DNA of 64,000 nt, taken from sequence record DRR378314_818. One strand, given 5' to 3'. The position numbers and the translations under genes are program-made. The notes beneath the pieces are model-generated. The model was not told where the DNA came from. It saw only the letters and a list, made by a program, of their open reading frames with translations, and ran no database searches. Of the stretch, positions 8,141 through 21,570 are shown piece after piece (the first letter of the stretch is position 1; the number at the start of each line of letters is the position of its first letter).

Positions 8141-9451
8141 TTAAGGCTCTTTCGCTTCGGGCGCCAATGTACGAACCGACGCTGCATGGCTTGATCCGTC
8201 CGGCTTGGTCAGACGTGGGCCGGGCCGTGTCAGTCCGATGTCGCGCATTCGGAAATTGCCCTCAATGATCTGCCGGAATGCACCGCCGGTGATCTCGTGA
8301 TCGACCACGACCAAAGCGCGTTCGACCCCGAAATAGCTCAGCATATCGGCGTCCAGCATCTCCCACGCATCGGCAAGGTAGGTTCCCAGCAAATCCCGCG
8401 CCTCGATCAGCGCGACGCGGAACCCTTCGGGGTCGGCGGCGTAATGTTCGTCAAACAAATCCTGCATGATCGCATTGTATTCATTGGACCCCTCCAGCAC
8501 GTCCGACAATTCTTCCATTTCCGGATCGATCACATTATGGGCGACCAGCCGTTCATGGTAGATATCGACCAGAATATCGAACATGGCACCGGTCAGCGGC
8601 TCCGACAGGGCGTGTTCGCTTGACCACCCTTTTGAGAATTCAGAGAGCGTCCGGTCATTCGCGGCGATCCGGATTTGCGAGTTCTGCGACAGCTCAGCAA
8701 AGCGGCTGAGCCGGTTATAGGTATAGAGGTTCCCGCGCGTGTTCTTCAGCACCTCATCCACGACCGAGCCGAAATGCAGTGACGCCAAAAGCGCCACCAT
8801 ATCCGCCGCAGATTCATGGAACCCGTAATACTCGCCAGTTGCATCCTCTTCCGAGGGCAGGCCGATGACGCTGTAAATGATGGCATGCCCGATCTCATGC
8901 GCCACCACGTCAAAGTTCAGGCTGTAGGGGCGGTATTCATCGCCATGCTCGCGGGTGCCGCCGGTTTCCAGAAACCCCCAACCGATATGCGCATTGTCGA
9001 GACCGGGCAGCAATGACAGCTCTAGCCGGTCGAAGTCACGCTCGAAATGCCACGGGATCGACCGGCCGAAATATCCCTCCCACACATCCATGGTAAAATG
9101 GGCCGACCCGAACAGATGGGCGGCTTCAAAGCCGGGGTCTTCGGGATCGATATGGATGAAATTGCCGAACTCATCGGGTTCGGGTGGTGGCAGGATATAG
9201 CCGTCCCAGGCGGGCAGATACATCTCGGGGCCATCCTCACCCTCGATCATCGCGCCATAGGGGGTCGTCTTGTCGACCGGGTACATCGCGTACATGCGCG
9301 GCCCCGAGGGTCCGGGCCCGATACTGCCCTGCGGGGCCGAAATCTCGACCAGTTCAGGCTTCGAGTTCGGCTCAAGATAGGGCGATTGCGGGTACAGCAG
9401 AAACCGCGTGCCCGGAGTTTCACTTTCCGAGTAGTCGGGCCAGATCGTCAA
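8141..9451 (-). CDS. Zinc metalloprotease, gluzincin (M4/M36-like), no signal peptide
   Basis: DNAH, DVVAHEIGH (HExxH), downstream GFHESAAD (third Zn ligand E), SEHALS resembling the thermolysin xVHxxS motif. Confidence 0.8.
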   Translation of the reverse strand: MTIWPDYSESETPGTRFLLYPQSPYLEPNSKPELVEISAPQGSIGPGPSGPRMYAMYPVDKTTPYGAMIEGEDGPEMYLPAWDGYILPPPEPDEFGNFIHIDPEDPGFEAAHLFGSAHFTMDVWEGYFGRSIPWHFERDFDRLELSLLPGLDNAHIGWGFLETGGTREHGDEYRPYSLNFDVVAHEIGHAIIYSVIGLPSEEDATGEYYGFHESAADMVALLASLHFGSVVDEVLKNTRGNLYTYNRLSRFAELSQNSQIRIAANDRTLSEFSKGWSSEHALSEPLTGAMFDILVDIYHERLVAHNVIDPEMEELSDVLEGSNEYNAIMQDLFDEHYAADPEGFRVALIEARDLLGTYLADAWEMLDADMLSYFGVERALVVVDHEITGGAFRQIIEGNFRMRDIGLTRPGPRLTKPDGSSHAASVRTLAPEAKEP

Positions 9452-9474
9452 TGTCCCCTCCCGTTATCGTCCCG

Positions 9475-10827
9475 TCAGAGTTCAGCCCGCTTATCGGGCA
9501 CCTGGTCCTCGGGATCGCCACCGAGGTGGCAAAACATGAATTCGGCTTCAATCAAATCAACAAACGCCTCACGCCCTTCAAGTCCAAGCGCGATTGCATA
9601 GGATTCAAGATCATCCGGTATCGCTTGGTCAAGCCGTGTTTCAAAAAACCAGATCAGCGATTGCGTTCTGTTCGTGTCGCCAGCGGTGCCATTCACCCGA
9701 TGCAGCCCCTCGAGGTGATCAGCCTTGCGCCGCGCCCGGTCGCGTAACGTGCCATAGCTGCCATCGTGGCGAAGCTCGGCCAATAGGGCTGTGTCCAGAT
9801 CGTCCGCACGCGCGGAAACAATCGCATCCTTATGGGCACGGTCGGCCAGCATAGCTTCGTATTGTGTTAGGGTCAGGTCGTTGTCCTGAAGCCATTCCAT
9901 CAAATCGGCATGGCGGGGCAGACGTGCCACAAAACGGTGCGCGGTCATCTGTTGCCGCAGCGCATCACGGTCGGGCAAATGGTTGATCCGATGCGCCTCA
10001 TCCCGCGCCAGCAGGTGTAACGCGGCCCGGTCGCGCAGACGGGTATATAGCTCTGGATCCAGCCGCACCTCATCCACTAATGCCCGTGCCTCTGATTCTT
10101 GCGAGGCGCTCTCGGAATCGACCCGAGCCTGCAGTTCGCGCCAGACCAGAGTGCGTTCAACACGTGGCGCGGCCGGGCCCTCTTTGTCCGCCTTCAGATA
10201 CTGCGCCATTTGCGTCAACATCTCACGGGCGTCATCACCCTTGGCATCCACCTGCCCCTCGGGCAGCCAGTTGTGAAATTCTTCCAGACCCAAGGCGGTA
10301 TCTACCGCCGCAATCACCTTATCCCAAACTCGGTCGCGATAGTGCAGGCCCTTGGCCGCATCCAACAGGGTCTGGGCAACCTCTTCCGAAACCACTTTGG
10401 CCGCCACCGCTTCTGCAAGTGTAGCACGGATCGAGACCATCGGCTCGCTCAGCGGCATAAAGCCAAGCTCGGCTGGACCGTGCAGCACCGCGACCTCATC
10501 GTCGTCAGCAATCGCGCCGCTCAGATATTCCTCAAATACCCGTCCGACGCCAATCATCCCGAAATCGGCCAGTTCAGCCGCGCGCAGGGCACCCATACTG
10601 GCGCTGCCAAAAACAGGTATGCCCTGTTCCAGCGCCCACAGGATTTCCTTGTGCCAGACCGAGGGTACACCGTCGAAATACCCATCAACGATGCCAATGG
10701 CCCGCGGCTTGTCGCGCACCACGCGATACACATCACCCTGCTGCACCGGGGGCAGGATGGTCGCGTCCAGATGCTCTTGCACCGACTCAGCCCGCAGCGT
10801 GGGTCCAACGAAGACAACGATGCTCAT
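9475..10827 (-). CDS. tfuA: TfuA-like protein with C-terminal helical extension
   Basis: VVFVGPTL, PPVQQGD, IVDGYFDGVPSVWHKEIL, GSASMGALRAAEL, DDDEVAVLHGP; start overlaps the ycaO stop (ATGA). Confidence 0.93.
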   Translation of the reverse strand: MSIVVFVGPTLRAESVQEHLDATILPPVQQGDVYRVVRDKPRAIGIVDGYFDGVPSVWHKEILWALEQGIPVFGSASMGALRAAELADFGMIGVGRVFEEYLSGAIADDDEVAVLHGPAELGFMPLSEPMVSIRATLAEAVAAKVVSEEVAQTLLDAAKGLHYRDRVWDKVIAAVDTALGLEEFHNWLPEGQVDAKGDDAREMLTQMAQYLKADKEGPAAPRVERTLVWRELQARVDSESASQESEARALVDEVRLDPELYTRLRDRAALHLLARDEAHRINHLPDRDALRQQMTAHRFVARLPRHADLMEWLQDNDLTLTQYEAMLADRAHKDAIVSARADDLDTALLAELRHDGSYGTLRDRARRKADHLEGLHRVNGTAGDTNRTQSLIWFFETRLDQAIPDDLESYAIALGLEGREAFVDLIEAEFMFCHLGGDPEDQVPDKRAEL

Positions 10828-12017
10828 GCCGACACCGCCCCCGCCCTTGGGCCCGCGATGAAATCGGGATCGTCATGCGGTGCCTCCAACCCCGGAATAA
10901 CCGCGCGAATAACGGCGATATCGATCTCGGGCCGGGACAGATCAACTGTTACAACTTGATCGATCCCAGCTGCCGACAGCCGGGCCAACAGCAGATCAAG
11001 ATCTTCGGTGAAAGACCCGGTCAGATACGACGGGCAATCGGAAAAACGCCCTGTCGCCGCAGCGCCATCGATCAACTCGCGGATATACCGGCTGCGCCAA
11101 GTGCGGGCCTCGTCCGAGAACTCCTCGGGGTCCAGATCATCCCGCGCGCCCGAAATATAGGTCAGCCGCGTCTGTGCCGCCTCGGTCAGCGCGCGCAACA
11201 GCGCAATGGCGCGGTCTGGGTGGCAACCATCCCCGATGCCGATATGGCCCGTTGCCTCTCCGGCCTCGCAGATGACACAGCGAAAGCTGGCGATGCCGAT
11301 ATCCGAAGTTGTGTCCCAAATCCCCAGTTCCAGGCCCGCCGCAGTGATCCGATCCATCGCTTGCTGACAGCGCGGATCATCGACCGTCGCCGGATCAACG
11401 CGCGGCATGGCCCCTCCGTGGTGCCACAGCGTAGTGGCGTCGCGCTCGATCAGTTCACAGATCGCATGGCAGCTGGCCTCAACAGCATCATTGCCCGAGG
11501 CCAGACCATTTGTCGTGCGCGGAAACGCCCGCTGCCCGGCTACCGGTGAGGTGGTGTAATCCGTATCCACCATCTCATAAGGAACCCAACAGTCAGCATC
11601 GGCGGTCAGGTCGCGCCCCTGCACCCACAGCATCGCCCCATGCGGGTCGAACTGCCCGCCCGTCACACGGGGCAGGCGGTCGACATCAACCACGTCGTCC
11701 GGTTCCAGATCGGCATGGCTGCACAGCCGCAGCGGCAGCTCGATCCGTTCTGCATGCCACGCCTCGATCGCTTCCATTACGCCCGAGGCCTGCGCCGCGC
11801 TCAGCGACAATCCCTTACCCAGCGACACCGCGACCGAGCGCGAGTTGGGCCGCGTCACCATCACCGTGGGCAACCCGATCCGGTCCAACCCGGTTAGGTT
11901 GGCGATCCGAGTGATGCCCATCTGTTTGAGAAACGGTTTGACGATGGCAAGGGTCTGTTCCGGATCGCGCAGCCGGTGGGTATCCAGCACATAAGTCTTC
12001 TGCGAAATCCCGGGCAT
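10824..12017 (-). CDS. ycaO: YcaO-family protein (TfuA-associated, thioamide-forming type)
   Basis: GITRIANLTGLDRIG, SLGKG, MEAIEAWHAE, TTNGLASGN, ELIERDA, RALTEAAQTR, AVIPGLE; no C-terminal PxPxP of azoline-forming YcaOs. Confidence 0.95.
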   Translation of the reverse strand: MPGISQKTYVLDTHRLRDPEQTLAIVKPFLKQMGITRIANLTGLDRIGLPTVMVTRPNSRSVAVSLGKGLSLSAAQASGVMEAIEAWHAERIELPLRLCSHADLEPDDVVDVDRLPRVTGGQFDPHGAMLWVQGRDLTADADCWVPYEMVDTDYTTSPVAGQRAFPRTTNGLASGNDAVEASCHAICELIERDATTLWHHGGAMPRVDPATVDDPRCQQAMDRITAAGLELGIWDTTSDIGIASFRCVICEAGEATGHIGIGDGCHPDRAIALLRALTEAAQTRLTYISGARDDLDPEEFSDEARTWRSRYIRELIDGAAATGRFSDCPSYLTGSFTEDLDLLLARLSAAGIDQVVTVDLSRPEIDIAVIRAVIPGLEAPHDDPDFIAGPRAGAVSA

Positions 12018-16645: not shown

Positions 16646-18553
16646 TTACGCGCTCCGCGGTTCAACAAACATCCGGCCACGCATTTCCATGTGCAGCGCA
16701 TGGCAGAACCACTGGCAATAGAACCAGTGCACGCCCGGACGGTCGGCAATGAATGTGACCGAGGCGGTCGCCTGCGGTGCAACTTCCATCGCGATACCGA
16801 AGTTCGACAGGCACAGCCCGTGGGTCACATCGTCCACGTCGTCCAGGTTGGTGACGTAAAGTGTAACCTCATCTCCCTGTTTGACAGTGAACTTCTCAAG
16901 GCTGAAGATCGGCGCGGTCGAGGTCATGTAGACCCGCACCTTGTTGCCGTCGCGGATGGGCTCTTCGGCACCTTCTTCAAGATCGACACCGTCGGCTGCC
17001 GCCTGCTGGCGCGCCTCTTCCCACATCGGGTCATTGCGATCCCAGACGTTGACCGGGTTCACTTTCGACCGATGAACAAGGATCGAGTCATGCGGTTCCG
17101 CAAAGGTCGGGCCGTCATGGACCACCTTCATCTTGTCGCCCGAGATGTCGATCAACTGCTCGTTTTCCGGCTTCAGTGGCCCGACGTTCAGGAAGCGGTC
17201 TTTCGAGAACTTGTTCATCGAAATCAGCCACTTGCCGTCAGCCTCAGCCGTTTCACCCATCGAGGTCGAGTTGTGACCCGGCTGGTAATGCACATCCACC
17301 TTGTCGAGGATCGGGTCAACATCCGAACCACCATAAGCCTCAATCGCCTTGGCGATGTCCCATTTCACAACCTGACTGTCGAGGAACAGGGTGGTATAGG
17401 CATTGCCCTTGCCATCGAACGCGGTGTGAAGCGGGCCAAGACCCAGCTGCGGTTCTGCCACGATCGCCGAGCGCGGATCGGCATTGTCGGCAAACAGCGC
17501 ATCGACCTTCTCCACATCGATCACGGACACGGTCGGCGACAGCTTCCCGTTGATCATGATGTGCTTCTTGTCGGGTGCTGCGTTCACTCCGTGCGGTGAG
17601 TTCGGGATCGGAATGTAACGGGTCAGATCACCACCGGCCTCTTTGCGGCCGTCCACGACTTTGACACCGTTCAGTTCCTGATAATTCCCGGCGGCAACAG
17701 CGTCTTCGATGCCTTTAAGGTTGAACACGACCACATGGTCCAGCTCATTCTCGGTCATCTCGGCCAGGTTCATACCCATTTCAGAGTTGTACGAGGTCGA
17801 GAAGGCGTATTTACCCTGATAGTCACAGTCCGTGTTGTCGAGGTTGCCCGACACCATCACCTGCCATGCGATCTCCATCGTATCACCGTCGATCGCGGTG
17901 AAGATGTTCACGTATTGCGACGGATCGTCGAGGATTTCGCCATCATTGATCAGCGGTGCCTCGTGTTCGCCATTGGCGAAGATATAGCCGGTGCGCGGGT
18001 ATTTCTGCGGGCGCAGGCCGTGGATGTCATGCGCGTTCGGGATCTCGATGATCTTGTCGCATTTCATTACGTCGCAGCGCACACGGGCCACGCGGGTGTT
18101 GGCCTTGTCGTTCATGAACAGATAGCGACCGTCATAGGTACCATCGGTGAACGACATATGCGGGTGGTGCAGGTCGCCATTGTCATAGGTAACCTTGCCG
18201 TTGGCAGCCAGATACGCCTTGGTTTCCGGCAACAACCCTTCGGTCAGGATTTTCAGCGACTCGTTGGTCTGACCCCAACCGGTGGCCGAGCAGCGGTTGA
18301 AGACCGGAATGCGCATCAGTTCGCGCATCGAGGGCACGCCGAGGATACGTACCTCGCCAGTCTGACCCGAGGACCAGAAGCCATAATATTCGTCCAGCTC
18401 GCCAGGCTCCAGATGGGCATTGGCGGCGGCGCTGGCTTCGCGCGCGCTCATCAGGGTCGAGCCGAGGCCGGTCCCTGCAATCACGGCGCCGGTGGCAGTG
18501 GCCCCCAGCATCCCGCGGCGTGTGATGCTTAGTTTGTTTTCTTTGTCCGACAT
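16646..18553 (-). CDS. nosZ: Nitrous oxide reductase (clade I, Tat exported)
   Basis: TRRGMLG Tat signal; DLHHPH, EPHD CuZ motifs; CuA motif [12 protein letters not shown]. Confidence 0.98.
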
Positions 18554-18568
18554 GATCGTTCCTCCTTT

Positions 18569-20746
18569 TTAGGAAGCGGTTTGCGGTTTGGCGTTTGGAT
18601 GGTTCGCCGGTGGTTGTCCAAGGGGGGTCTTAAGATCGACCGACCCTGTCTTGGCCCGCCGTTTCAACTGGCGGATAACGACGGGACATTTGTCCTCGGA
18701 CTGGTAGAGCACCTGACAATGCAGGCAGGTGACGCACTCGTTCGGATTGATCTCACCGGTGGGGTGGATTGCCTGAACGGGGCATTCGTTGGCGCAGGTT
18801 TGACAGGGGGTGCCGCAATCCTTGTAGCGGCGCAGCCAGTCGAACATGCGAATACGGGCCGGGATCGCCAGCGCCCCACCCAGCGGGCAGAGATAGCGGC
18901 AATAAAACCGTTCGATGAACAGCCCGATCCCCAGCAGCAGCAGCGCAAAGACCACAAACGGCCAGTCGCGCATGAATTTCAGAATGATCGCGGTCTTGAA
19001 CGGCTCGATCTCGGCATATTTCTCGGCCAGCGGGATGGAGACAAAGCTGAGGCCGAAGAGACCAAGGAAGATCATGTATTTCGCGGGCCACAGCCGTTCA
19101 TTCAGACCCCAGGGCAGGGTCCATTGCGGCACTTTCAGTGCCCGTGCGATCTTGTTGGTTAGCTCCTGCAGGGCACCAAACGGGCACAACCAGCCGCAAT
19201 AGGCGCCGCGCCCCCAGAACAGCAAGGCGGCGGCCACGGCGAACCATTGGATGAAAACCAGCGGGTCCAGAAGGAAAGCATCCCAGCTGAAACCTGTTCG
19301 CACACTGCCCGCCAGCGCCATGAGGTTCACCACACTTAGCTGCGCGTTGGCGTACCAACCGATGAAGAACAGTGTCAGCGTCAGGTACCCGATGCGGAAC
19401 CAGTAAAAGACCCGGGCGTTCATCGTGGCGTGGAACTGGAAGAAGAACGTCGCAGTCAGTATCAGCAGCATGACGCCCAGACCGGCAATCTCGACCGTGC
19501 GATCCTTCCAGATGCGTTTCCACAGTGCGGCCTTGGCGGCGGCCTCGTCCGTGGCATCATCAACGACGGTAGGGGCCGCAACCGGCAGCAGGTATTGCTC
19601 GGGCAGTTTGTAGCCCAGATCGAAAGTCAGAAAGGTTTTCTCAACGGCACCCACCGCGCGCTGCACCAGCAATTGCAGGCGGAACGGCTCAGCCGGATCG
19701 AACTCGGCGTCGGCGGGGATTTTGAAGATGTCGAGCTCGGTAAAGCTGGGCGCATCGGTTGCGGCCACCTTACCCAACCGGCGTTGCTGCTTGTCGAAAA
19801 ACCGCACCGAGTTGTCGCCCTGAATCAGCTGAATCCGGTCGAAAATGCCACCCCGGACATAACCCGATCCCTTAAAGCTATAGGCCCCGCGCCCCAACAC
19901 CAGAATGGCCTGCTCGCCCTCGCCCAGCCAGTTCATGAGATTCTGGTATTCGGCTTCCCCCAGCAGCGATTTACCGATCGACGGGACTGAAACCAGCGCC
20001 ATATGCATGTCGATAAAGGTGTCATCCGGCTCACCCGGTTCAGGGCGTTTTGTGGCGCGCTGATCGCCGGTGGCCTCGAACGCGACATTGACCTGCCCGA
20101 TGTCCAGCGTCAGCCGCCGCACCGATCCGTCGCCCGACAACGTGGACCAGTCGTAAACCGCACTCTGCGCCATATCGACTTCGCGTTTGGGTCCATCGGC
20201 CAATACCGGAGACAGACCACCCAGCCCCAGTGCTCGCGCGACCTTGATCCCGCCACGCACAAGGCTGTCGTCGATCACCATGATCGTGACAGTGGCCCCC
20301 GAGATAATGTCGAGGTCATGCCCCTCACCCCCGGTCTCGGCCTCGCGCTTGAGGTCCAGACCGGTATAGCCTTCGGTCAGTTCGACCATGCGGGAATTGG
20401 GGATGCCGATCAGCACGATCGGTTCCGAGTGTTTGACCAGTTGCACGCCGGTCAGCACCGCATCGTCATCAATGGCGGCAACCACATGGATGGGTTTGCC
20501 GGAATAACCCGTCGTGCCCACGAAGTCAGAGGTCAGGAATGCCCAGGCAATGGTCTCACCCCCCTTCAGAACGGGGGCAACCTTGACGTCATCGCGGACC
20601 GGGCCAAAGCCATCGGCACCAGGTGCCAGATCGGCGGGTTCGATTTCAGGAAGGAAGCTGGCAAGACTGTCGGCATGGGCACTGATCGCCATCAGGCAGG
20701 ACAGTGTGAAAGCCAGCAGGAAATGGATTGCGCGACTTACGACCAC
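18569..20746 (-). CDS. nosR: NosR flavoprotein/Fe-S membrane protein
   Basis: DIISGAT flavinylation motif, YCGWLCPFG, YCRYLCPLG, two ferredoxin-type Cys clusters. Confidence 0.95.
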   Translation of the reverse strand: MVVSRAIHFLLAFTLSCLMAISAHADSLASFLPEIEPADLAPGADGFGPVRDDVKVAPVLKGGETIAWAFLTSDFVGTTGYSGKPIHVVAAIDDDAVLTGVQLVKHSEPIVLIGIPNSRMVELTEGYTGLDLKREAETGGEGHDLDIISGATVTIMVIDDSLVRGGIKVARALGLGGLSPVLADGPKREVDMAQSAVYDWSTLSGDGSVRRLTLDIGQVNVAFEATGDQRATKRPEPGEPDDTFIDMHMALVSVPSIGKSLLGEAEYQNLMNWLGEGEQAILVLGRGAYSFKGSGYVRGGIFDRIQLIQGDNSVRFFDKQQRRLGKVAATDAPSFTELDIFKIPADAEFDPAEPFRLQLLVQRAVGAVEKTFLTFDLGYKLPEQYLLPVAAPTVVDDATDEAAAKAALWKRIWKDRTVEIAGLGVMLLILTATFFFQFHATMNARVFYWFRIGYLTLTLFFIGWYANAQLSVVNLMALAGSVRTGFSWDAFLLDPLVFIQWFAVAAALLFWGRGAYCGWLCPFGALQELTNKIARALKVPQWTLPWGLNERLWPAKYMIFLGLFGLSFVSIPLAEKYAEIEPFKTAIILKFMRDWPFVVFALLLLGIGLFIERFYCRYLCPLGGALAIPARIRMFDWLRRYKDCGTPCQTCANECPVQAIHPTGEINPNECVTCLHCQVLYQSEDKCPVVIRQLKRRAKTGSVDLKTPLGQPPANHPNAKPQTAS

Positions 20747-21201
20747 GGCGCACCTCCGATAGTTTGGGTGGGCACCATGGACGCGCGCAGGGCGCGTTCA
20801 GTTATGTCTAGGGTCGGTTGCGGGGGGCCTCGGGTTTCGGGCCACCGCCAATTTGAGTTGTACAACTCGAAAGAAACGCTGTTCTGACCCTGTACAACAC
20901 GGACGAAATCCGAATACGCGACCGCCAGCACCTGCGGCACAGGTGCCGCGCTGGTGATCGCACACAATGCGCAATCGGCGCATTTCGGGCAATACGCGGT
21001 CGGGTCTTCGGCATCCTCCTCAAGATCAACCTCAACCCAGACCGCGCCGCCTTCCGAGCAGATCTCCACCCAGACACTTTCGCCAGTACTCGCCAATGCC
21101 GGCCCAAAGGTCTGCAACAACAGAAGAAATATGCCCGCCAACCCACAAACCGCGCGAAAGGCGCGTGCAGGGAGAATGTGCAGAGGGGTCAGCGCAGGCA
21201 T
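20737..21201 (-). CDS. nosC: NosC-like / DUF2946-like protein
   Basis: Signal-like N-terminus, EICS, CPKCADCALC, RGPP; directly upstream of and overlapping nosR. Confidence 0.65.
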   Translation of the reverse strand: MPALTPLHILPARAFRAVCGLAGIFLLLLQTFGPALASTGESVWVEICSEGGAVWVEVDLEEDAEDPTAYCPKCADCALCAITSAAPVPQVLAVAYSDFVRVVQGQNSVSFELYNSNWRWPETRGPPQPTLDITERALRASMVPTQTIGGAPWS

Positions 21202-21260: not shown

Positions 21261-21274
21261 TTGACTTAGGTTAG
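21261..21274. promoter_or_regulatory. Degenerate FNR/DNR-type box upstream of nosC
   Basis: TTGAC-TTAG-GTTAG. Confidence 0.5.
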
Positions 21275-21306
21275 GTGCGGCGGCGTTCTGATTTTATGAT
21301 TTAAAA

Positions 21307-21570
21307 TCAATCATCTGACTCATCCATAAGCCCACGCACCCATCGCCCGGCCAGCCAGGTCGCAGGGATGCCCAGAGGGATCGACCAAACCAACGCCGTT
21401 ACCGGCTCGATTATACCGAACCCCGCGCTATGGGCGATCAATCCAGCCAAAAACAGGTTGATGGCAACGGTCAACGCGGTGGCCGGATAAAGCAGGATGG
21501 CCAGCTTCCAGACCGGCCATTTACCCTCAGTGGCTGGTGCCTTCCGAGAAGGTGATTTTGTTCCAGACAT
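21307..21570 (-). CDS. nnrT: NnrT-like small membrane protein
   Basis: LLYP...AINLF...GIPATWLAGRWVRGLMDE pattern; the only in-frame ATG overlaps the nirN 3' end by 44 nt. Confidence 0.65.
   Translation of the reverse strand: MSGTKSPSRKAPATEGKWPVWKLAILLYPATALTVAINLFLAGLIAHSAGFGIIEPVTALVWSIPLGIPATWLAGRWVRGLMDESDD

Follow-up and report, generated by a model that had tools for sequence, protein, structure and literature searches.

NosC as a candidate copper-released ribosome-arrest leader of nosR in a Ruegeria-type nos operon

What is the role of the small gene nosC in front of nosR and the nitrous oxide (N2O) reductase gene nosZ? The question is raised by a stretch of 64,000 nucleotides (nt) from sequence record DRR378314_818 (the window), in which nosC is placed on the minus strand between a nir cluster and nosRZDFYLX, as the first gene of a Ruegeria-type nos operon. 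Denitrifiers short of copper (Cu) are known to release N2O, and NosC is genetically tied to that control. According to papers citing the genetics of Pden_4221 by Sullivan 2013 (PMC7660919, PMC5387054, PMC8951191), deletion of nosC in Paracoccus denitrificans deregulates the Cu response of nosZ. A nosR mutant of the same species contained more nosZ transcript in low Cu, which was read as repression by NosR, and both lesions are reported in these secondary passages to lift the Cu-limited repression of nosZ. The function of NosC is given as unknown in a 2021 review (PMC8139620).

NosC is a DUF2946 leader in a new wiring, and the N2O-removing machinery is likely kept off until Cu frees a stalled ribosome. 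We consider it on balance probable that NosC acts in cis as a Cu-released ribosome-arrest leader, in which the stall keeps nosR untranslated and completed translation switches nosR on. In low Cu, the ribosome would stall with Pro126 in its P-site. Binding of Cu to the CxxCxxC segment 43–46 residues upstream would release the stall, as proposed for the Bordetella leader CruR. The released ribosome would read the tail of nosC, melt a start-hiding helix after about 11–12 more codons and terminate on the nosR start, leading to coupled initiation. An untranslated nosR (2.2 kb) would be polar on nosZ.

The genes and protein features concerned are the following (all on the minus strand):
20737..21201, minus: nosC, 154 amino acids, DUF2946 (CruR/CutF-family) leader open reading frame (ORF); PF11162, same family name in RefSeq relatives
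21094..21168, minus: hydrophobic N-terminal helix, residues 12–36, signal- or anchor-like (AlphaFold, predicted local distance difference test score >90 for residues 11–30)
21025..21078, minus: predicted beta-hairpin, residues 42–59, with invariant Cys48 (AlphaFold and alignment)
20962..20991, minus: CPKCADCALC, residues 71–80, two CxxC units, putative Cu sensor
20821..20832, minus: RGPP, residues 124–127, putative arrest motif
18569..20746, minus: nosR, flavin mononucleotide (FMN)-binding and 4Fe-4S domains, proposed gated gene (NF046105 803 bits, below its 1000-bit cut-off)
16646..18553, minus: nosZ, N2O reductase dependent on twin-arginine translocation (Tat), 15 nt downstream of nosR (TIGR04244 1152 bits)

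The NosC protein and its putative arrest motif

The window protein matches PF11162 (DUF2946) with 32 bits (E 2.3e-7), which is above the cut-off of 23.7, and its Ruegeria relatives are labelled DUF2946 family protein in RefSeq. The same family had been named in the original prediction, which was made from the letters alone. Its coordinates were all correct, comprising the ORF (21201-20737), CPKCADCALC, RGPP (20832-20821) and 27 further codons to a TAA inside nosR.

For comparison, 197 nosR or paralog loci were collected. With the window included, the set contains 113 distinct nosC junctions and 12 duplicates; at the other 73 loci, no leader bearing the motif is present. The signal-like N-terminus of the original prediction corresponds to the AlphaFold helix, and a hydrophobic stretch was found in 113/113 NosC relatives; a role in export is predicted from hydrophobicity and the helix model. 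RGPP, on which the original prediction leaned, is conserved: the motif is RGPP in 109 and RAPP in 4 of the 113 junctions. A CxxC lies 42–47 residues before the motif Arg in 111/113 proteins, the two CxxC units of the window protein being 46 and 43 residues upstream. Among the 83 of 113 proteins that were aligned, C48, C74, R124, P126 and P127 are invariant, while C77 and C80 are conserved in at least 90%.

A profile made from the part of NosC ending 30 residues before the motif matched 124 of the 197 loci, 123 with R[AG]PP and one with RGSP; it was trained on motif-bearing proteins, and duplicates are included in these counts. One motif-bearing ORF (L164) was missed by this profile. The protein with RGSP (L119, G274:C22) is the sole nosC product found with this replacement of RGPP, and its stop is still located at the nosR start.

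CruR (Bp2923) of Bordetella pertussis is the DUF2946 prototype, in which 45 residues separate CxxC and motif and the spacing matters for regulation (PMC9426467). Like CruR, NosC belongs to PF11162, is encoded by the first gene of an operon, has an export-like N-terminus and shows a RAPP-type motif about 45 residues downstream of CxxC. The window nosC is predicted to head the transcript of a Cu-related operon, with an FNR-like box upstream and nosRZDFYLX downstream. As the toeprint of CruR places the first Pro of its motif in the P-site during arrest (PMC12992588), we infer Pro126 (20826-20824) to be the P-site codon of a stall in NosC.

The three or four Cys residues together with the invariant Cys48 exceed a simple CxxC. 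The signal sensed by a cis-acting arrest leader might then not, or not only, be Cu, but another thiophilic metal, the periplasmic thiol redox state or export force. Reports of nosC mRNA being up 9.4-fold in Zn-depleted medium and up under iron limitation point in this direction, as does the disulfide-driven release proposed for CutF of Rhodobacter capsulatus. However, NosC agrees with the Cu sensor CruR in both family and spacing, its target is an enzyme that contains Cu and nosC deletion is reported to deregulate the Cu response, which makes such a signal quite improbable.

The export-like N-terminus and the Cys cluster would also suit a trans-acting periplasmic Cu chaperone, sensor or heme protein, for which the features of the nosC-nosR junction described below would be only ordinary stoichiometric coupling. 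NosC was termed 'putative heme-containing' in one paper, and CxxCH is present in two Paracoccus proteins (L200 and L201). It is seen only in these two: window NosC lacks it and 0/113 other NosC proteins have it, and a heme protein or c-type cytochrome was rejected as a candidate. A folded periplasmic domain is not supported either, since AlphaFold returned the signal-like helix, the beta-hairpin and little else, with no compact fold (predicted TM-score 0.32). A trans-acting protein leaves the invariant R-x-P-P unexplained, a motif reported to be avoided by bacterial proteomes, and CutF fails to complement in trans. We therefore regard a role of NosC as such a protein as very unlikely.

The nosC-nosR junction

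The junction contains the following features:
20737..20739, minus: nosC stop TAA inside nosR codons 3–4, 10-nt overlap
20746-20744, minus: nosR GTG start, within the 3' helix arm
20753..20757, minus: nosR Shine-Dalgarno (SD) GGAGG, partly paired in a weaker upper helix (pair probability 0.58–0.71)
20772..20783, minus: 5' helix arm, within the 27-codon nosC tail
20740..20751, minus: 3' helix arm with the nosR GTG (minimum free energy (MFE) structure, centroid, alignment)

The trait common to all nosC-nosR junctions is the stop/start overlap, not the hairpin. An in-frame nosR start was found within -10 to +5 nt of the end of the nosC stop in 113/113 junctions, and the number of codons between motif and stop ranges from 3 to 48 (27 in the window). 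As the nosR starts were picked from an interval around the nosC stop, the overlap was checked in two further ways. The chance of a start falling in such an interval is 0.38 per junction, and kin are not independent. In a start-independent check with 25 of 27 diverse junctions, tail length correlated with the distance from RGPP to a NosR anchor (rho 0.78), and a rho of -0.39 was obtained with the distance from the stop to this anchor. In a tree of 43 selected loci, two independent tail shortenings are nested in the clade with 25–27 codons (supports 1.0 and 0.99), to 9 codons in R. pomeroyi and to 12 in L038, and the overlap is retained in both. The chosen nosR start is identical to the RefSeq start in three named loci.

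On the R. pomeroyi DSS-3 megaplasmid (L203), a GTG preceded by an SD overlaps the nosC stop, and the RefSeq start of nosR is placed 63 nt downstream of this GTG (1381 vs 1444). This RefSeq start may be too late.

According to the original prediction, CCAUGGUGC (20780-20772) pairs with GCGCCGUGG (20751-20743). This 9-bp helix is present in both the MFE and the centroid structure, with pair probabilities of 0.99–1.0 when the region covered by the stalled ribosome is removed. The inner CCACC/GGAGG pairing, also part of that prediction, was recovered, but is weaker (0.58–0.71) and less conserved, with column pair 77-90 being unpaired in 49/86 sequences. The firm helix covers chiefly the start codon and the spacer, and the SD to a lesser extent, which corrects the first description of the hairpin as hiding the ribosome-binding site.

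The hairpin clade comprises 86 of the 113 junctions (Ruegeria/Shimia/Leisingera), with the nosR start 74–86 nt from the P-site. Opening of the nosR start region costs a median of 18.0 kcal/mol in this clade (n=86), compared to 10.2 kcal/mol for the nosZ starts of the same loci (n=82), whose SD is of equal strength (-10.9 vs -10.8). Medians of 10.2 for nosR without nosC (n=65), 12.2 for other long tails (n=14) and 5.7 for short tails (n=13) were obtained. Among 46 long ORFs of the window, the nosR start ranks second in opening cost.

In the alignment of 86 rows, 83.6% of the cells are paired and 12 of 19 pairs vary on both sides. Compensatory changes were found at 20776-20747 (GC 54, AU 15, GU 9 of 86) and 20780-20743 (CG 59, UA 13, UG 5 of 86). 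RNAalifold returned the same core helix at only -3.4 kcal/mol. On the NosR tree, 62 of 92 changes in the core end paired, compared to 30–45% for slid partners, and 8 double changes fall in the core, compared to 0–3.

Other results are less favourable to the helix. The window junction alone is no stabler than chance (z = -0.99; 26/200 shuffles fold equally well), and for L001, whose junction is identical, 8/60 synonymous tail shuffles hide the start equally well. Only 10 of 39 junctions beat their synonymous shuffles (<=3/60), with 33/39 above the mean. Tree-aware covariation analysis gave no significant helix pair among 5050 pairs (best E about 17). A pair-preserving substitution test was positive for the whole structure, but did not discriminate, since its slid controls also gave positive results, and was discarded. 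The hairpin is missing in P. denitrificans, where opening of the start costs 8.8–10.5 kcal/mol. As the single sequence does not beat its shuffles, the evidence beyond chance is comparative.

For a lower GCGCG/CGCGC helix, no excess was found (16/60 vs about 15 expected), and it is not claimed. A universal hairpin is ruled out by the 13 short-tail junctions and P. denitrificans. Judged from these sequence comparisons, the hairpin is real but restricted to one clade.

Proposed sense of the switch and comparison with known systems

The stalled ribosome was modelled with a leading edge of 13 nt and Pro126 in the P-site. Its edge then lies at 20813, which leaves 33 nt up to the helix, so that the stalled ribosome could not open the nosR start. 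The opening cost remains at 18–21 kcal/mol up to P-site codon 136 and drops from codon 138, with the putative stall at codon 126. In the 13 junctions with short tails (3–9 codons), the nosR start is 17–32 nt from the putative stalled P-site, so that the ribosome itself would cover or crowd the SD.

With stop/start coupling as the universal feature, stalling would mean nosR OFF in all forms, inverse to CruR and CutF. The OFF state would be reached by a start-hiding helix out of the ribosome's reach (Ruegeria clade, strong SD), by the ribosome's own footprint (tails of 3–9 codons) or by a weak SD, for which initiation would require coupling (Paracoccus). The logic put forward originally, in which the stall occludes nosR and read-through opens it, holds on the comparison and the modelled geometry. 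If Cu releases the arrest, which we infer by analogy to CruR, Cu would turn nosR on. Cu-dependent activation of nosR suits a Cu enzyme.

More tentatively, and with less than even confidence, we suggest that NosC represents a third wiring of the DUF2946 Cu sensor, in which arrest silences and release activates via stop/start coupling, with hairpin, footprint and weak SD as interchangeable locks, and that the reported 'NosR repression' of nosZ in low Cu is the cis polarity of an untranslated 2.2-kb nosR and not an activity of the protein. A single point mutation in RGPP would then make the synthesis of N2O reductase independent of Cu. Both mutant phenotypes would fit stalling plus polarity in cis, because loss of nosC removes the stall and loss of nosR removes the untranslated tract. 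This offers a concrete mechanism for Cu control and a different reading of the 2013 nosC and nosR mutants.

Several points weigh against the proposed switch. Stop/start overlaps are common in operons. In the family-wide sample, nosC is present in 47 of 85 nosR loci and missing from the other 38. Cu control of nos genes has also been reported in Bradyrhizobium and P. stutzeri, whose nos operons are described as beginning with nosR. In P. denitrificans, nosCR mRNA rises in low Cu (Sullivan 2013 via citing papers), and separate nosCR and nosZ transcripts are cited in a review; neither is predicted by simple polarity. If NosR is a repressor in low Cu, the NosR protein is needed there. The direction of Cu action is not fixed by the family, because CutF stalls with Cu.

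The same cis-acting leader could indeed work in the direction of CutF, with Cu causing the stall and NosR being made in low Cu, where it represses nosZ. The stall of CutF in the presence of Cu, the rise of nosCR mRNA in low Cu and the higher nosZ transcript of the nosR mutant in low Cu would agree with this. However, NosC has RGPP and CruR-like spacing instead of the CxxxC and PPP of CutF, NosR being OFF in high Cu would be physiologically backwards since NosR is reported to be required for N2O reduction, and the mutant data fit cis polarity equally well. A CutF-like direction is thus considered unlikely.

NosC resembles CutF in being a DUF2946 leader before a Cu enzyme, with a Cu-ON output (proposed in the case of NosC) and a stem-loop over the next initiation site (PMC9973294; bioRxiv 10.1101/2025.02.05.636593). 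In CutF, arrest takes place at PPP when Cu is present, and it is the arrested ribosome that melts the stem (bioRxiv 10.1101/2025.02.05.636593). Unlike in CutF, the stem of NosC is located inside the leader ORF, 33 nt past the modelled ribosome edge, so that only release could melt it. The CutF mechanism does not fit, as the stem is not within reach of the stalled ribosome and the opening cost falls only at codon 138. The CutF motif set (CxxxC plus C-terminal PPP) was likewise not found, window NosC having CxxCxxCxxC and RGPPQ.

For CruR, release of the arrest by Cu is proposed and regulation acts through Rho. NosC differs from it by RGPP and by a tail of 27 codons (3–48 in relatives) compared to 3. 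It overlaps nosR by 10 nt, whereas CruR has a 162-nt gap, which its authors call incompatible with coupling. The output of NosC would be ON with Cu, while CruR leads to Rho termination with Cu. The CruR mechanism (Cu-OFF by Rho), with its C-terminal motif and long intergenic region, does not fit the 27-codon tail and the distance of -10 to +5 nt in 113/113 junctions.

The precedent of CruR working through Rho raises the alternative that the leader acts mainly on the transcript: the tail, left naked by the stall, would undergo decay or Rho-dependent termination, and the hairpin would be a pause or coupling element. In 86 of 98 long-tail junctions, more C is present in the tail than in the core of nosC (C/G 1.54 vs 1.03), but this is partly explained by the anti-SD arm. 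Tails of 3–9 codons are too small for a loading site, nosCR mRNA is reported to be up in low Cu and the overlap is retained in 113/113 junctions. Action mainly on the transcript is therefore quite unlikely.

In arrest peptides of the SecM/ApdA/ApdP type, prolonged arrest opens the SD and induces the downstream gene. NosC shares with them a RAPP-like motif, a localisation signal and an upstream position (PMC12992588); in NosC, unlike in those, arrest would repress the downstream gene. The release-activated switch proposed here would give the RAPP/RGPP family an architecture in which arrest means OFF; in those members of the family that have been studied, the downstream gene is induced by arrest.

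The NosC protein of P. denitrificans (Pden_4221; L200) is similar to that of the window in its position directly before nosR, its CxxCxxC, its RGPP and its stop/start overlap. It differs in the length of its tail (41 codons), in the form of the overlap (ATGA), in its weak SD and in lacking a start-hiding helix. Within the nosC tails of L200 and L201, two additional ATGs are in frame with nosR; they are located 28 and 67 nt from the P-site and have no SD.

According to Ozturk 2023, where a CutF-like gene overlaps the next gene or is separated from it by <10 nt, this next gene is mostly nosZ or nosR, and Cu was suggested to be sensed cotranslationally by a different mechanism in such cases (PMC9973294). 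The same contrast is seen among the rows listed in the Fujiwara 2025 supplement (PMC12992588), where the gap is -4 to +24 nt for 10/10 RAPP leaders before nosZ and 95–285 nt for 13/13 before NosL-annotated genes. The RAPP leaders directly before nosZ may represent the same switch acting on another first gene. In the literature searched, which left subscription journals and theses outside, nothing was found that proposes RGPP arrest, a hairpin or coupling for NosC, and the PMC12992588 supplement may list nosC-nosR pairs. What was not found in print is the junction geometry and the cis-polarity reading of the nosC and nosR mutants; the general idea of cotranslational Cu control was already hinted at (Ozturk 2023).

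Occurrence of nosC and neighbouring features

Among the loci searched, the nosC-nosR arrangement is limited to Rhodobacterales relatives. nosC is absent from 27 nosR loci of other alphaproteobacterial families and was not found in five NirI-like paralog loci or three named rhizobial/Roseibium loci. A motif search of 38 phylum-wide loci, one of them incomplete, did not find it in 37; the lone match belongs to the window's family. The closest relatives of the window NosR are from Ruegeria (95–99% identity).

Upstream of nosC, one further feature was identified:
21261..21274, minus: FNR/NNR-like box CTAAC-N4-GTCAA, 60 nt upstream of the ATG of nosC, probably part of the promoter of the nos transcript

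The box has two mismatches to the consensus. A box with <=1 mismatch occurs upstream of nosC in 85 of 112 relatives, compared to 11/86 in a nosR coding control, and that of P. denitrificans is perfect. A box indicating a separate FNR-type promoter before nosZ was found in only 1/85 loci, and the nosR-nosZ gap is <=23 nt in 85/85. The search for a sigma-70 promoter or an intrinsic terminator at the nosC-nosR junction gave nothing above chance. Along nosR, no strong C>G Rho-loading bubbles above those of nosZ were detected.

A perfect 8-bp inverted repeat with a 5-nt spacer (TGATTTTA / TAAAATCA; 21289-21309) is located 15 nt upstream of the FNR-like box and is possibly the site of a second regulator. 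Just before the nosC promoter, a small hydrophobic ORF of 87 amino acids (21307-21570, minus strand) overlaps the end of a nirN-like gene. It has no NCBIfam match, and its longer reading has no Pfam match; it may be related to NnrT.

The genes after nosZ follow in the order nosD, F, Y, L and X. Directly downstream of nosX, in the region 8141-12017 (minus strand), YcaO and TfuA genes are followed by a 436-amino-acid ORF with weak metallopeptidase matches only. YcaO and TfuA form a thioamidation-type pair adjoining the cluster of a Cu-sulfur enzyme.

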